Below, piece after piece: positions 18,300-61,928 of a stretch of 64,000 nucleotides of DNA. Source of the DNA: Octopus vulgaris (Eukaryota); contig OX597827.1 of NCBI GenBank assembly GCA_951406725.2, positions 78,492,001 through 78,556,000 on the forward strand, read 5' to 3'. The position numbers and the translations under genes were made by a program. Within the stretch, counting starts at the first letter, position 1; each line of letters starts with the position of its first letter. The notes under the pieces were generated by a model. That model worked only from the letters and a program-made list of their open reading frames with translations, searched no databases and was not told the origin of the DNA.

Positions 18300-18675
18300 T
18301 GTTAATTTTTTGGCTCAAAAAGCAAAAAGCAAGGCCATGTAGGGGGACATGGAGTTATGTACAGGGTGGTGTTCATGTAAAGAGTTCAGGCCACTATCTC
18401 GTCCGGCAGCTTATTCCAAGGATCCGCAACCCGGACGGAGAAAGCCCCTCTCCTTCGATTGAGGTGAAATCGTCGCAGATAGAGCTTTTCGGAGTGACCC
18501 CGCAGCCGACGCTCTGGAGCAGGAGTGAAGAACAGCTCTTTCGAGAGGTTACACTTCCGCTTATGATGTTGTGAGCAAGAATGAGATCACCACGGCGTCG
18601 TCGTTTTTCTAGAGAATAAAGGTCGAGCGTCTTCAGCCTTTCTTCATAAGACAAATGCTTGAGACCAAGAGCCAT
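18300..18675 (-). mobile_element. 3' end of a CR1-type LINE
   Basis: HLSYEERLKTLDLYSLEKRRRRGDLI...RLRGHSEKL...AFSVRVADPWNKL; near-identical to 54745-55205. Confidence 0.85.
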
Positions 18676-18956
18676 GTATGTGTTAGTGTGGTGTAATTGT
18701 CCAGAGATAGTCATGTGTTTTTATGTTACTTTTAGGTGCGTGTGTGCATATTTGTATGTGTATATGAGTCAAGTGGTTTTGTATGTGTGTGTGTGTGTAT
18801 ATTCACATGTATGCATACCAATGTGATTGTGTGGGTTAAATGGATTGGGGCTGGAAATTCATACCCAAAGGTTCCCTAGGTGTCATGTAGCAGGACTGAA
18901 TCTGACACCCCCAGGGGCTGAAGCGAACTTCTTCCTAACAACAGCTTTACCTCTTT

Positions 18957-21167: not shown

Positions 21168-21344
21168 ATTGATTAGAGAGAGAGAGAGAGAGAGAGAGAA
21201 GAGAAAATTAATTTAAAGAAAGAAAAAGATTTTTTTTTAGAAAAAATATTTAATGAGAATTGTAAAGTTTATTGGGATATATTTGTAGAGGAACTGAAGT
21301 GAAAAGGACTTTTGGAAGGTTTTCCTGTCAAACGGGTGATCACC

Positions 21345-22760
21345 ATGTATTCCGACCAACCCATATATCCTACAATGGTGCCACCACCAAACTACCATAC
21401 TTGTGGTCTCCATCTGCAAGACAGCAATGACAACAGCAACAACAACAGTAACAATAATGGTAATAACAATAACAGCAACATTCCTGGTAGCAGTGATGAG
21501 ACGAGTGAAACGAGGGAGGGTTCCGGCTTAAGCAGTCGGAAATCAGTGGCCATGCAGGAGCAGCCGGTTTATTATAATCACAAACATGGGGAGAAGCCGT
21601 ACAAGTGCAACACGTGTCGCAAGGCTTTCTCGAGACGAGCGGATCTGAACAATCACGAAGTAGCGTTTGCTGGGGGCAAACATTTTAGTTGTGCATACTG
21701 CTGCAAGGCATTTTGTCAACGGGCCCACTTGAAGAGCCACGAACGCATCCATACAGGTGAGAAACCATTCCAGTGTGAGTCATGTCCGAAGTCGTTCAGC
21801 CAAAAGATCCACCTGAAAGTCCACGAGAGGGTCCACTCGGGAGAAAAACCCTATCGATGCCACATGTGTTGCAAAGCGTTTGCTCAAAGGGACCACTTGA
21901 GTAACCATCAACGCGTCCACACGGGAGAGAAACCTTTCAGCTGCACGTTCTGTTTGAAAGCGTTCAGTCAGCGTGCGCATCTGAGGAACCACGAAAGGGT
22001 CCATACGGGGGAGAAGGCGTTCAGCTGTTACATCTGTAACAAAACGTTTAGTCAGAGAACTTACCTGCGTAACCACGAGCGGATTCACACTGGGGAGAAA
22101 CCATTCAACTGTGACGTGTGTTTTAAGTCGTTTAGCCAGAAAGCCCACCTCAACACACATGAACGCATTCACACAGGCGAAAAACCATTCAAGTGTCACG
22201 TGTGTAAGAAAGCGTTCAGCCAGCGCGACCATTTGAACAATCACCAAAGAACTCATACTGGAGAGAAGCCATTTACCTGTGTGTACTGTCACAAATCATT
22301 TAGCCAAAGAGCTCACCTGAACACTCATGAACGAACCCATACAGGTGAGAAGATACCGTCACCATGTTGTCAGCCGGCTCCAGCTACGACCTGTTTAGTC
22401 CATAGCTGCAAAGCAGCATCGCCGGTCGTTCCGACCTGCTGCTCGGCACACAAAGTCACCCCCAAACGAAACAATGAACCAAAGATTCAAAACCGACACC
22501 CAAACTACTGCAATCACCACCACCACCATCACCATTACCACCACCACCACCACCATGCTGAATCGCAGGAGTCTGGTGAGAAGTCGTTGGCGGCCAATCA
22601 AGACACCAACAGGAAGACCTACACTCCTCGAGGAGCGAGTTCCACAAAGAACACCGGCCATTGCGAGCATTCTTCATCTCAGCCGGTAGAGACCCCACCC
22701 GCGGCAACGGCCCAGCAACAACCACCACCCCCAGCACCGCCACCACCACCACCACCACCA

Positions 22761-22792
<32 letters not shown>

Positions 22793-22860
22793 ACAACAGC
22801 AACAACAACAACAGCAGCAGCAACAACAGCAGCAACAACAGCAGCAGCAGCAACAACCAA

Positions 22861-22891
<31 letters not shown>

Positions 22892-22967
22892 AACAACAGC
22901 AACACCCAACTCCGGCACCACCTTCCACCCCACATGCTTCGCAGCTCTCCCCCATCGCCAACCCTAG
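21345..22967 (+). CDS. C2H2 zinc-finger transcription factor ZNF-A (8 intact + 1 degenerate finger; poly-N, poly-H, poly-P and poly-Q tracts); true end probably 23226 after correcting a 1-nt frameshift at 22857/22858
   Basis: caccATG start (the ORF-track TTG start is not used; in-frame TGA at 21300); tandem CxxC-x12-HxxxH with TGEKP linkers. Confidence 0.95.
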
Positions 22968-23226
22968 TAACATGGGAAGGGGCAGCAACAACGGTGGCGG
23001 CGGTGGTGGTGGTGGTGGTGGTGGTGTTGGGGTTCAGCAGCCAAACCCTCCCACCCTGATCCTGCAGCCATTGAGTATCCCATCGACATGCAGTCACCAG
23101 ACCCTTCAGAACTGGGAAAATAGCTATTCCTGGGCCAGAGGTTTCCCTGCCATGTCCCCTACCTGGGGCACAGGTTGGACTAATTCCCCCAGTGTCTTCC
23201 CATGTACTTTGAGACAGAGCAAATAG
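22858..23226 (+). CDS. out-of-frame (+1) C-terminal segment of ZNF-A: Q15-HPTPAPP...poly-G...QNWENSYSWARGFPAMSPTWGTGWTNSPSVFPCTLRQSK*
   Basis: PolyQ codons resume in this frame straight after the extra C; the C-terminus aligns with that of ZNF-B. Confidence 0.8.
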
Positions 23227-23403
23227 TCAGGCTCCCATCTCTGCCCCCTGCTTCTTTTCGTCTTCATTTCATCCTTCATTTTTGACAAACACCAAACTAA
23301 TGGACACCTCTACATTAACCATACACAAATACATACGACAAATACATCCTAAACTACACAGTTCATACACACACACGGGTATGTATGTTTATATATATAT
23401 ATA

Positions 23404-47669: not shown

Positions 47670-48820
47670 TCAGGCTGAGTAAAAAGTAAGCAACGTTTTG
47701 AAACATGAAATTCATCACAATATATTTCAACAATGCGGAAATCTTATTCAAAATAAGTACCGTTACAATCAATATATTTTTGCCAATGAGTTACAAGTTT
47801 GTTTATTCCGGTAACATAAAAATTTGGAGTTCTGGAGCTGATGAACTTTTTGAACGCACTTTCAGCATCGGTTTGATTTTTGAACTCCTTCTCTTGTAGG
47901 AAACAATGAAGTGCTTCAAAAAGTGGTAGTCGGTAGGAGAAAGGTCGGGAGAATAAGCTGGGTGGGGAAGAACTTCGTAGCCAAGTTCTCTCAACTTCTG
48001 GAGCATCATTAGTAAAATGTGTGGTCGAGCATTGTCATGCAGAATGATTGGCCCTCTTCTGTTGACCAGTCTGGGATGGAGGAGTAGCAGTTTATTGTTC
48101 ATTTTCGCAATTTCATGGCAATATGTTTCTGCAGTAATGGTTTTCCGAGTTTTAAGAAATCATAGTGGATGAGTCCAGCTGTACACCACCAAACAATAAC
48201 CATAATCTTCCTCTTGAAGAGCTCGGGTTTAGGGAAGATTTTCGGTGCTTCATTTTGGTCCAACCACTGTGAAGATCGTTTTTTACTATTGTACAGAATC
48301 TACTTTTCCTCGCAAGTTACAATACGGTCGAGAAATAGATCGGTCTGGTTACGGAAAAGCGACGAGCAAATTTCATATCTGTGCATTTCCTAATTTTCAT
48401 TCAAATCGTGTGGTACCCATTTGTTGAGCATTTTTGATTTTCTGATCGCATGCAAATGGTTGCAGGCAGTTTTCTGACTAACCTGAAATTCTTTTGCCAA
48501 TTCTCGAGTGGTTTTACGTGGATCATTCTCAATGGCAGTCTTTAATTGACTGTCATCGATGACTGATGTGTGTCCTCTACGTCCTTTTTCGAAGTTGAAT
48601 AGCAAAATTGCTCGAATATCGCGCTTTGACAGTTCCATTTCAGATGATTGTAACAACGGTGAAAAAAATATCAATGTTAATTTATTGATGCATTTGGGCG
48701 AATCTGTCTTTATTATCAGACAATTGCAAAAAAAAAAAATGTTTAAAAAAATTCAAAGCTCTGCAAAAGTCCAGTACACATTCTTCATGATTCAAAACGT
48801 TGCTTACTTTTTACGAAACC

Positions 48821-52756: not shown

Positions 52757-54030
52757 TTGGGTCATCCCATAAATAATGCGGTTTTTTATACTTTTATTTT
52801 TCAAAATTAAGATAAATTTCTTTTTTAATCTGAAATATACTCTCCTTCATTTTCTGCAATGCTCTTTCATCTGTCTGGTAGACTTACAAGGCCCTCTTCC
52901 AAAATTCACTTGCCCGTGACGGAAAATACTCCTCCAGTACTATTCTGACCTCATCTACAGAATTCATATTTTTTCCATCCAAATGATTTTGAAGACTGCG
53001 GAATAAATGATAATCAGATGGGGTAATGTCCAGCGAATATGGTGGGTGGAGCATCGTTTCCCATTTAAACTGCTCCAGCCTTTCGAATGTCATCCTCGCT
53101 GTATGTGGCTGAGCATTATCCTGATGGAAGAACACCTTTTGTCTTGAAACCAAAGATGGTTGTTTTACTTCTAACGCTGACTTAAGCTGCTCACAGTTGA
53201 TCTCCTTCATTATCGTTTAGTTTGGGTTTAAAAGTTCAAAGTGAACTAAACCTTTCATATTCCACCAAACACATAATAACACCTTACGTGAGTGAAGACC
53301 TTCTTTAGCCTGAAGTGCCGGTGTTTCTCCTTTCCCTGCTCACTGTCTTTGGCGCTTGACATTTTTATAAAGAATCCATTTCTCGTCACCAGTCACCATT
53401 CGGTCCAAATGAATTTCATTCGTGAGATGTGACAGCAAAGAAGAGCACACATTCATTCTCTGTGCGCGATTAGACTCGGGAAGTTTGTGAGGAACCCATT
53501 GACCTAATTTGATGACTTTTCCGATGGCACAGGTGTTGATGAATGGTTGAATGACCAAATACAAGCTTCTCTGCTAGTTCCTCAACAGTTACGATGGGAT
53601 TTTGTTCCACCAGGGTTTGCAGGACGTCCTCGTCGAGCTCTACAGATCTTCTAGGACGAGGATCGTCTTCTAGGCAGTAGTTTCCGGCTTGGAATTTCTA
53701 GAACCACCGTTGACACTGACTTACGCTTATTGTTCAGTCTCCATATACTGCATTAATATTCCTCGCGCTTTCAGTCGCGTTGTTGCTTTTATTGATTGAA
53801 TTCATAAATCAAAATATGCCGAATATGTTCCTTTGTCACTTCCATTATGGCTTCGAAAAGATAACTGTTAAAACCCAACTGCACTCTTCAAAACTTGCAC
53901 TAAAATTAAGGAAAAGGTAGAACTACTAACTGCTTTTATAGCAAGTTGATAGAGGTTGTTTATCCCGTCCCCCTCCGACTTTTAGTTCATGCAATTGAGA
54001 AAAAACCGCATTATTTATGGGATGACCCAA
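52757..54030 (-). mobile_element. mariner transposon (DD34D), near full length, perfect 30-bp TIRs
   Basis: ttgggtcatcccataaataatgcggttttt / aaaaaccgcattatttatgggatgacccaa-TA; WVPHKL, VTGDEKW, HQDNAQPH, YSLDITPSDYHLF. Confidence 0.95.
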
Positions 54031-54744: not shown

Positions 54745-55205
54745 GTTAAGTTAAGTTAATTTTTTGGCTCAAAAAGCAAAAAGCAAGGCCATGTAGGGGG
54801 ACATGGAGTTATGTACAGGGTGGTGTTCATGCAAAGAGTTCAAGCCACTTGAGGTCAAGGGAGACTTTGAACTGAGCAGTCGTCGGCATCTTCACTATCT
54901 CGTCCGACAGCTTATTCCACGGATCCGCAACCCGGACGGAGAAAGCCCCTCTCCTTCGATTGAGATGAAATCGTCGCAGATAGAGCTTTTCGGAGTGACC
55001 CCGCAGCCGACGCTCTGGAGCAGGAGTGAAGAACAGCTCTTTCGAGAGGTTACACTTTCCGCTTATGATGTTGTGAGCAAGAATGAGATCACCATGGCGT
55101 CGTCGTTTTTCTAGAGAATAAAGATCGAGCGTCTTCAGCCTTTCTTCATAAGACAAATGCTTGAGACCAAGAACCATGTGGGTAGCCAGCTTCTGGACTC
55201 TTTCG
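54745..55205 (-). mobile_element. 3' end of a CR1-type LINE with (TTAAC)n tail
   Basis: Same sequence as 18300-18675; gttaagttaagttaa tail on the plus strand. Confidence 0.85.
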
Positions 55206-56247
55206 AGAGAGTGAGCTAATGTACATCACAAGCATTTAATCACTATAATCAATTCATTTGTGCAGATCGTTCGGCAAAAGCTGAACGCTCACACGTCGTC
55301 TTCGATGGGAGAGTCCATCATCAACATTATTATTAGTATTATCTCTTTTTATCACAGGTTTTGTTGGAACTCCTGGAGTCTTGCATGCATAGCGAGCTTC
55401 TTACCTGCAGCCTACGGTACCATGCTATCCGTTCTTTTCAGCTATCTAATCCTTTCCTAATTATTCTGTCCGTGCCAAGGAAGCAAACGTTTTGTAACAG
55501 TTCCACTGGGAAACTCTTTTCCAATTTCCTTGATATTCCTCTTGATGCTTTCTCATGTCGTCCCAAGGACAACAATAATTGAAAATATCTTCCTCTCCTT
55601 CATTTTCCACAGCCGGGTTATTTCGTACTGAAGAGATTTCGTAAATATCTATTTTCGCCTTCCTTCTTCAATATTTGTGGATCAAAGGGGCAGGCAACAT
55701 CACATATATAATCACATGTGGTGCATGTTATCCACAACCACAATGTCCGGTCTGTTAAGCTCTAGCATCTGAGCTGCTTGGGTTGGGAAATCCACAGGAT
55801 TTTGCAGGTCCCCGACTCCGCCACTCTGTACGGTCTGCGCTCATACCACGTCTTACCTCTCTCTAGAGACCACTTTTTGCACAGTTTCTAATGTAGCACT
55901 TTGCTACCTGTCTCTTTGTGGCACTGTGTCTTAGTATATGAGATTAATGTGTGTTTGTAATTATATATGTACTTATGTGTGCCATTGTGTGTATTGTGGT
56001 CTATGAAAAGAAGCACCATGTTCTTGCATGTTATAAAAAGGGACTAAAAGTGTTAGCGACAGAAAAGGTATCTTTGGGGGAGTGTTTTCTATAAGCTTGG
56101 ACTGATCAATAGTGAAAGTATTGTGTAGATGGAAACTATATGGAAATGCGTCGTGTGCGTGTGTGTGTGTGTGTGTGCGCGCGCGCGTTCGTGTGCGTAC
56201 GTGCGTGCGCGTGTGTGTTAGCGACGGAAACAGTATTAATACCGAAT

Positions 56248-56989: not shown

Positions 56990-59416
56990 ATGTATCCAGT
57001 ACAGCCGATGTACACTCCAGGGAACCAGTTCAATTTCGAGGTGCATGGCCAGTCCTATTACCCCAACAGCCATGTGAAATACCATGACAAATCTCTTCCT
57101 ATGGAGAAACCGTTCAGCTATGATTTCTTTACAAAAAACCTCTCAAGCCGTGTCACATCAAACAACAGCAGCAGTCACCTCCATCACCAAGACAACAGCA
57201 ATAACAATAGCAACAACAACCACAACAGTAGTAGTAACAATAATAACAACAACAGCAACAATCTTCATCAATGCAACAGCCGGGGTGAACGACTCTCTTC
57301 AGAAGAGAAGCAGTATTACTGCGGCTTCTGTAAAAAGTTTTTCGCCCAAAGGAGCCAACTGGAAGCTCATGAGATGACACACTTAGAGAAGACGTTCAGC
57401 ACTTCATTCTTCAGTCGAGCTTTTCCACTTCAACATTCTTCTGACTTCAAGAACTTTGATCAAGTAACAATGGATCGTTCTTTTGGCCTCCCCAGTAACT
57501 TCGACAACGAGGCCGACCACAATAACAATCCAAACTCCATGTTCTCCAGTCGTTCCGCATTTCCGTTTTATTCTTCTCATTCTCATCTTCACAGCCAAGG
57601 CATCCCAAAAGACACAAAGGACATAGACCTTAGTCGTCCCCATTGTGACAATACGGCAGGAGCAGCTTCAGTTGGGTTGACGTCAGCTGATAAATTATTC
57701 AATTGTGATATTTGTGGAAAGGCCTTTGCACAGCGGACCAATCTGGCAAACCACCGACGGATCCACACGGGTGAAAGGCCCTTTACTTGTTTGGAGTGTG
57801 GAAAATCTTTTAGCCAACAAGGGAACTTGAAGATACATGCACGAACACATTCCGGAGAGAAACCTTTTAACTGTGAAACCTGTGGTAAATCCTTTAGCCA
57901 GAGAACTAACCTCGACAACCATCGGCGTGTCCATTCTGGAGACTTGTTCAACTGTCGCTTCTGCTCGAAAGCGTTTTCTCTGCAAATTAATCTTCGCAAC
58001 CATGAACGGGTCCACACTGGCGAGAAGCCCTTTAAATGTACTTACTGTCCGAAAATGTTTAGCCAACAAGGAAATCTGAGAACTCATTTAAGAACTCACA
58101 CAGGGGAAAAACCCTATCACTGCGACACTTGTGGTAAGTCGTTTTGTCAAAAAATAAACTTAGATAATCACCGTCGAATTCACACTGGAGATCTGTTTAA
58201 GTGTTCGTTTTGCTCGAAAGCTTTCTATCAGCAAATCAATCTACGTAACCACGAACGCATCCACACAGGCCAAAAGCCGTACCACTGTGCATATTGTGAC
58301 CGCACTTTCTGCCAACAGACAGAATGGAAAAACCACGAACGAGTTCATACAGGAGAAAAGCCATTCGTTTGTGCAGTTTGCGGGAAAGCATTTAGTCAAC
58401 AGGGGAACCTGAAGATTCATTTGAGGACCCATACTGGAGAGAAACCTTACAGTTGTATGGACTGTGGAAAGGCATTTTGCCAGAAGATCAACCTGGACAA
58501 CCATCGACGCACTCACACGGGGGAGCTGTTCAAATGCACAATGTGCTCGAAAGCGTTCACTTTGCAGATCAGTTTGAAGAACCACGAACGGGTGCACACG
58601 GGGGAGAAACCATTCATCTGCACAGTGTGCCAGAAAGCATTTAGTCAACAAGGGAATCTCAAGACGCACATGCGCAAACATACGGGTGAGAAGCCTTTTT
58701 CGTGCAATGTCTGCGGGAAGGCCTTTTCCCAGAGGGGAAACCTCAATCACCACCGAAGAACACACACAGCAGCGGAATTAACTGCAAAGTTCTCGTTAAC
58801 CTCCCCAGCAGCTGCTGCAGTTGCACTGAACAAACCAAATGATAGAAGTAACAACAACAACAACGATAATAACAATAATAATAATAATGGCAGTAGTACA
58901 CCAATTAAATCTTCAGTTGGGTCACCACCATTGACACCGGCTGGACTAACATCACCCTATCCAAACAGGGACAATAAACTCTTTCAAAGGAATATCGGGG
59001 GTTTGAAATCGAGTCTTGACCTCAGTAGTATTGGTGGCAGCCCCGATCCCGATGGACCTCTCCATAATTCATCACTGATTGATGGGTCCATCAGCTCAGG
59101 GACTGGAATATTAAAAGACCGTCTAAGGGACCAACAGGCCCTCAGTGCCTCGGCACGTCTACAAGCTTCTGCAATGACGTCATCGTGGATGGCTTCCCCT
59201 TACCTACAAGATATGCCACAAAGCTGGGAAAATAATTACCTGTGGTCGCGAAGTTTCGCCATGCCGCCCATGGCAACCTCTTACTGGCCGAATGTACCGG
59301 CCCCGTTGCCATGCGGAAGTATGAAGCAGGGCAGGCAAAGTCCTTGGACCAGCATCCAGGGAATGCACACTTCCCAAAAATGTGCAATCGATGCGCAAAA
59401 TCACTGCATGAAGTGA
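56990..59416 (+). CDS. C2H2 zinc-finger transcription factor ZNF-B, 808 aa (13 tandem fingers + 1 isolated finger)
   Basis: Acceptor ttgtttcctgtattttgtag ends 56980; caccATG; uninterrupted ORF; canonical CxxC/HxxxH fingers. Confidence 0.97.
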
Positions 59417-60314: not shown

Positions 60315-60865
60315 TTAATTGACAGTAAAATATAGCACCTGATGGTAACGTGTAGCTATTGATTGTGAAATGTAGCTTTTGACAGTAAAATAATACTATT
60401 CATGGTAAAATGTAGCTATTGATGGTGATATGCAGCTATTGACAATAAAATTTAGCTATTTATTGTGAAATGTAGCTATTGACGGTGAAATGTAGCTATT
60501 GACGGTAAAATGTAGCTATTGACAGTAAAATATAGCTATTGACAGTGAAATGTAGCTATTGACGGTAAAATGTAGCTATTGACGCTAAAATGTAGCTATG
60601 GGTAGTAAAATGTATCTATTGACGGTGAGATCAAGCTATTGGCAGTGAAATGTAGCTATTGACAATAAAATCTAGCAGTTGACGATAAAATGTAGCTATT
60701 AGTGGTAGAATGTAGCTATGGACAGTGAAATGTTGCTATTGACGCTAAACTGCGACTATTGACAACAAAATATAGCTATTGACACAAAAACTGTAGTTAT
60801 TAATAGCAAAATGTAGCTATTGACGATAAAACATCATAACTGATAGTAAAATGTAACTAGTGACA
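60315..60865. repeat. 20-bp minisatellite (gacRgtRaaatgtagctatt), about 27 units
   Basis: Exact 20-nt period visible in the 60-column layout. Confidence 0.95.
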
Positions 60866-61324
60866 TGAAGGTCCTTATGTTCATGATTTCACAGCAAGAC
60901 TAACTCTGTACAGGTGTGACACCGTATATTAATTAACTAATCGAAACCGATAAAAAGAACATCAGATAAATTAATATGCTAACAGACAAACCAATGAATA
61001 CAGGTCAACTGATGGAATAACATACATAATTAAAGAAAGAACAACCAAAAGGTTATTGAAGAACTGATTAATTAATTAAACAAATGAGAAGATAATGGAA
61101 CAACTGGTAGATTGATGAGCAAACCAACAAACGAGTGGAACCAGCTGACAAACTAATGGGATAACTAGCAAGCTGGTGGGACAATTGAAAAATCGATGGG
61201 ATAACCAAGAAACTAAAGAGACAATTGATAACCTGTGGAAACTGACAAGCTTATGGAACTGATGGACAAAAGACAGGCCGATAGGATGATTGACAAGCTG
61301 ATGTATTAAATGATAAATACATGG

Positions 61325-61928
61325 GTCAACTGACAAGCTGATGGGCTAATTGTTAAGTTGATGGGACAACTGACAAGCTGATAGGATAATGAAGAGGTTA
61401 GTAGGATAACTGACAATCTGTTGTGTTAACTGATGAGTTAATTTGACAACTGACAAGCTGATGGGCTAATTGATAAGCTGATGGGACAATTGACAAGCTG
61501 ATGGGATAATTGATAAGCTGATGGGACAATTGACAAGCTGATGGGACAATTGACAAGCTGATGGGATAATTGATAAGCTGATGGGACAATTGACAAGCTG
61601 ATGGGATAATTGACAAGCTGATAGGATAATTGACAAGCTGATGGGACAATTGACAAGCTGATGGGACAATTGACAAGCTGATGGGATAATTGACAAGCTG
61701 ATAGGATAATTGACAAGCTGATAGGATAATTGACAAGCTGATGGGACAATTGACAAGCTGATGGGACAATTGACAAGCTGATGGAACAATTGACAAGCTG
61801 ATGGAACAATTGACAAGCTGATGGGATAATTGACAAGCTGATGAAACAATTGACAAGCTGATGGGACAATTGACAAGCTGATAGGATAATTGACAAGCTG
61901 ATGGAACAATTGGTAAGCTGATGGGACA
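61325..61928. repeat. 20-bp minisatellite (tgacaagctgatgggaYaat), about 28 units, decaying leftward to about 61100
   Basis: Exact 20-nt period. Confidence 0.95.

Follow-up and report, generated by a model that had tools for sequence, protein, structure and literature searches.

KRAB, SCAN and ZAD are accessory domains of zinc-finger families. Cephalopod genomes carry a tandem C2H2 zinc-finger expansion (PF00096/PF13465), which is described in passages of PMC12513265. We analyzed a stretch of 64,000 nucleotides from Octopus vulgaris (contig OX597827.1, positions 78,492,001 to 78,556,000 of the forward strand), hereafter the window, which contains two genes of this kind, ZNF-A and ZNF-B. The nearest named proteins are P0122 and P0123 (ZNF-B of Octopus bimaculoides and O. 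sinensis) together with P0083 and P0124. ZNF-A resembles them in its tandem fingers with TGEKP linkers, its similar N-terminus and the same C-terminal motif. It differs from them in having nine fingers, other DNA-contact residues, long Gln, His and Gly tracts and a motif that ends about 25 residues earlier.

The reading frame of ZNF-A is broken within a CAA/CAG repeat. Long-read assemblies can contain false frameshifts where there are tandem repeats, as reported in parts of PMC12212083 and 10.1101/2021.07.02.450803, where most of the indel errors removed by polishing are located within tandem repeats or within homopolymers. The ZNF-A break is like them in being a single-base indel in a low-complexity coding repeat, with clean flanks and an intact downstream frame. 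It is unlike them in that its status as an error is a presumed one and the site is a CC pair with no long homopolymer. Frameshifting on the expanded CAG repeats of HTT and ATXN3 (passages of PMC4231732) shares with ZNF-A a Gln frame that continues as an Ala-rich frame. In that system the event is translational, involves long pure CAG hairpins and is mostly -1, whereas ZNF-A shows a DNA-level break in a CAA-rich mosaic and would need a +1 shift.

Results

The features of the window are listed in Table 1. ZNF-A belongs to the cephalopod C2H2 expansion and is unexceptional within it: it scores 104.2 bits against PF00096 (cut-off 25.2), with tandem fingers of the form C-x2-C-x12-H-x3-H. Neither a second His nor the TGEKP linker is present in the first finger (21606-21668); an isolated or irregular N-terminal finger also occurs in P0121 and P0083. 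ZNF-B clusters at 90% with O. bimaculoides and O. sinensis proteins. No KRAB, SCAN or ZAD Pfam family was found at E up to 1 among the six proteins scanned.

Table 1. Coordinates of ZNF-A, ZNF-B and other features of the window
Feature	Position	Strand	Remark
ZNF-A coding sequence up to the break	21345..22856	+	504 codons; N-terminal MY..QP.YP-like stretch, as in ZNF-B and P0083
Nine tandem zinc fingers	21606..22340	+	eight canonical C2H2, first without second His; PF00096, 9 stretches
His tract (7+6)	22515..22556	+	in frame
Pro tract (8)	22737..22760	+	in frame
Gln tract, 32 codons	22761..22856	+	frame 0; 18 CAA, 14 CAG
Break	22857..22858	+	CC in place of the repeat's single C; one base inserted or two lost
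Gln tract, 15 codons	22858..22902	+	+1 frame; 9 CAA, 6 CAG
Frame-0 ending, 36 aa + TAG	22857..22967	+	no likeness to paralog tails
+1-frame tail, 122 codons + TAG	22858..23226	+	Gly11 at 22993-23025
In-frame ATG of the tail	22972..22974	+	the tail has one other Met codon
Trp-rich C-terminal motif LQ ... WEN.Y.W.R.F ... P ... W.N.P ... C	23062..23223	+	common to cephalopod zinc-finger paralogs
ZNF-B, intact paralog	56990..59416	+	808 aa, 14 fingers; same motif at ~59144-59368
Two similar ORF pieces	18394..18720; 54827..55225	-	presumably resembling a LINE reverse-transcriptase ORF at its 3' end
Transposase pieces	47803..48752; 52884..53216	-	taken to be broken and mariner-like
Two adjacent minisatellites	60318..61928		period 20; 25.6 and 30.4 copies

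The assembly as written carries the break. A codon count bore out the first-pass annotation, which had described 32 Gln codons, an extra C and 15 more Gln codons in the +1 frame. The CC at the break is the only one in the Gln tract; the repeat unit is 3 and the longest run of identical bases is 2. All 47 Gln codons, on either side of the break, vary only at the third position of their own Gln frame, and 27 of the 47 are CAA. From ATG 21345, frame 0 ends at TAG 22965-22967 to give 540 aa, of which the last 36 are at first Thr/Ala-rich. The +1 frame is open as far as TAG 23224-23226, so that the earlier figures of a stop at 22967 and of a 626-aa ORF after removal of one base (504 + 122 codons) were both correct. 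When the 107-codon tail is shuffled, 262 of 10000 versions remain open by chance. ATG 22972 is in the +1 frame, 4 nt past the frame-0 stop, and 84 aa follow from there. One inserted base and two bases lost from a Gln codon are indistinguishable from the sequence: an internal copy across the break spans 13 codons in the one case (matched by 99 and 181 of 5000 shuffles) and 12 in the other, which is weak. The break sits in a long microsatellite that is the longest repeat of the gene and the most repetitive part of ZNF-A. In ZNF-A and ZNF-B alike, the remaining tracts (His, Pro, Gly and Asn) keep the frame.

The claim that the +1 frame, open to 23226, ends in a motif shared with ZNF-B was confirmed by alignment. 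The +1 tail scored 90 against the tail of ZNF-B and 122 against that of P0083, a third Octopus paralog, and in neither case did any of 1000 shuffles reach the score, while the frame-0 ending scored 30 and 32 against the same tails, which is background. With the +2 frame, ZNF-B tails gave 59 and 64 (reached by 1 and 0 of 1000 shuffles) and P0083 gave background; the ZNF-B scores are probably a low-complexity match of an Asn/Ser run to the ZNF-B Asn tract. A profile made without ZNF-A gave the tail 54.1 bits among 2076 window pieces, with the next non-ZNF-B piece at 6.6 bits; the profile has four rows, two of which were found using the tail itself, so it is not fully independent. Over 32 codons, the differences between ZNF-A and ZNF-B at the three codon positions number 13, 10 and 18, and codon-usage scores were -1.4, -20.4 and -5.5, which lend weak support.

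The motif is present in 14 of 143 collected proteins, and in 12 of these 10 to 14 fingers lie upstream in the same chain. The 14 rows form three paralog groups, five rows being near-identical relatives of P0042; relatives of five of the 14 built the profile, and P0108 and the P0042 cluster had not been found before. In ZNF-B, two other paralog groups and unnamed relatives, fingers and motif come in that order within a single reading frame. Outside the window, the carriers of this Trp-rich segment of about 50 aa are P0042, P0083, P0108, P0122-P0124, P0126, P0128 and P0130-P0134. A search of 1.84 billion representative proteins with the tail returned five matches. P0126 (from cuttlefish) and P0128 carry the motif; P0125, P0127 and P0129 were discarded as matching through a Gly run only. 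P0126, which has no fingers as annotated, is a single chain in which blocks rich in His, Ser and Pro, ordered as they are in ZNF-A before the break, lead in one frame into the motif. Its front scored 117 against the pre-break region of ZNF-A, a score reached by 0, 3 and 22 of 1000 block shuffles. The motifs closest to that of ZNF-A are those of P0128 (53%) and P0126 (42%), both finger-less as annotated; these two proteins may be gene-model fragments.

Judged by these likenesses, the +1 tail is real coding sequence. Tail homology, the motif-bearing relatives and the third-position variation of the Gln codons together argue that the +1 frame was translated until recently. As would be expected of an assembly artefact, the downstream frame is intact and is homologous to paralogs that read through. 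Since the tail is intact, an old break, which should have let it decay, is excluded, but a recent real one is not.

No intact ZNF-A ortholog was found in protein searches with the whole ORF (dominated by other finger proteins), the tail (0 of 24 candidates) or the post-finger region (0 of 257), nor among the representatives, of which P0126 is at most suggestive of an unbroken ortholog. By exact look-up, six readings of ZNF-A were absent from a collection of 15 billion proteins, in which ZNF-B is present. The gene may therefore be missing from annotations, or be mis-modelled, in Octopus genomes. A metagenome scan of 28 stretches left a single one that passed, L001; this is a bacterial contig with the match outside its ORFs, and it was dismissed as chance.

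Fourteen sequencing runs contain 0.85-0.92 of the sampled words of the region. The contigs of four of these runs (X9, X1, X4 and X12) were compared with 22350-23350 and align in eight pieces with no gap and no joint; this comparison is one of the flanks, as 22712-23039 was set aside as a repeat in all four runs. The one substitution listed in the flanks is C22459A (Thr372Asn), which X4 and X12 carry and X1 and X9 lack. The contig ends at 22759-22789 and starts at 22997-23002 do not tell the alleles apart. Three runs that we guess to be RNA cover both flanks, and three contigs from such putative RNA have lengths that run parallel to the DNA contig, without a difference, over about 21177-22711.

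The tail motif matched no Pfam family; the best E value among PDB sequences was 0.22, and the Atlas gave no usable match for two queries. AlphaFold modelling of the motif gave no confident fold (pLDDT 53, pTM 0.24). The motif was not found in print within the open literature searched, with subscription papers outside its scope. The words "motif" and "C-termin" occur 0 times in the portion of PMC12513265 consulted, and passages of PMC10547256, whose large supplements lay outside the scope, name no octopus accessory domain. The ZNF-A tail ends about 25 residues short of ZNF-B and P0083, its TAG aligning with a Gln of ZNF-B; P0128 also ends shortly past the motif.

Discussion

The extra C in the CAA/CAG repeat is likely to be an error of the assembly, and the animal itself probably has no frameshift here. 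An error is favored because the break is in the longest repeat, the flanks match independent contigs and the other tracts are in frame. An assembly indel was also the leading reading of the first-pass annotation; it fits all the evidence gathered, and the alternatives offered beside it proved weak. The base would be absent from the animal, consensus or polishing having presumably failed in the repeat, and the gene would encode one protein of about 626 aa with nine fingers, His, Pro, Gln and Gly tracts and a conserved Trp-rich tail. Counting against an error are the failure of the searches to find an intact ortholog, the finger-less annotation of P0128 and P0126, whose motifs are the closest, and one published figure: of the frameshifted genes in accurate human HiFi assemblies, 78% had support as real ones (parts of PMC12212083), a figure whose weight depends on the technology behind this assembly. 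It is unlikely, yet the most probable of the alternatives, that the base belongs to a recent indel allele of the sequenced animal, probably heterozygous, which would be an ordinary loss-of-function variant with a 540-aa product containing the fingers and Q32 but not the tail motif. Such a product had been called DNA-binding-only, a description that did not hold up, as about 170 residues with His, Pro and Q32 tracts come after the fingers. Decay of mRNA with a premature stop follows a junction-dependent rule, and the stop here is in an apparent single coding exon, so the message might be spared. None of the 14 main runs exceeds 0.92 of the sampled words, which fits individual differences although their position is not assignable, and passages of PMC12212083 note that frameshifts in good assemblies are often real. 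Against a real allele, natural length change in a trinucleotide repeat typically occurs by whole codons (PMC3590770, in part), and the motif has been kept from cuttlefish to octopus, which suggests that its loss would be selected against.

The remaining readings accept the base and keep the tail in use, and even taken together they are very improbable. It is highly doubtful that the base is fixed in the species while the tail is still produced, whether through +1 ribosomal frameshifting, through re-initiation at ATG 22972 or through an intron spanning the break. Just as doubtful is the idea that the C is real and gives separable products, namely a 540-aa finger protein alongside a tail of 84 aa started at ATG 22972, or else the full-length form by recoding. 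P0126 and P0128, two finger-less motif proteins on record, would then represent the same arrangement and not fragments. Re-initiation had been proposed earlier and looks weak: ATG 22972 has a good context (A at -3, G at +4), but it is preceded by a 540-codon ORF. UGGGA upstream of the restart codon is a motif of viral re-initiation, and there is no TGGGA in the 102 nt before the ATG (22870-22971). For an intron, a phase-compatible GT at 22686 and AG at 22944 are present, 22686 being the only such donor after 22600; the three putative-RNA contigs run 26 letters past it without a joint, a length below the 31-letter bridging rule. A hairpin of -68.8 kcal/mol, beginning where the tract ends, has z -2.5 relative to dinucleotide shuffles and might stimulate frameshifting. 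The stretch was picked after the fold had been seen, however; 31 and 32 of 500 synonymous recodings equal it and the wider region has z -0.02, so these controls revealed no stimulatory structure beyond the sequence dictated by the protein. In passages of PMC4231732, -1 frameshifting occurs on CAG and not CAA repeats and +1 products are rare, whereas the Gln tract is 27 CAA of 47 and requires +1. Least probable of all is a switch in which slippage toggles the tail between cells or individuals. The break does lie within a long microsatellite, but slippage by units preserves the frame (PMC3590770, in part) and the other tracts are in frame. The toggling allele suggested earlier lacks a substrate in a tract that would slip codon by codon and contains no run above two bases; neither a unit other than a multiple of three nor a long mononucleotide run was found. 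In nature a trinucleotide repeat typically moves by whole units, and an assembly error is the likely reading that we retain.

Whether the tail motif is a partner-binding element appears evenly balanced; it might recruit a partner protein to the DNA bound by the fingers. Like KRAB, it is a short, lineage-restricted conserved segment on a finger array. It differs from domains of the KRAB type in being C-terminal, in matching no Pfam family and having no confident fold, and its function is a candidate one. If the extra C is an error, there is only a gene model to correct; if the base were real and regulated, ZNF-A would be a rare case of a transcription factor with a detachable effector. The durable point is that the motif is kept in zinc-finger relatives of octopus and cuttlefish and has no family model; as a candidate effector within part of the cephalopod zinc-finger expansion, it is open to testing.
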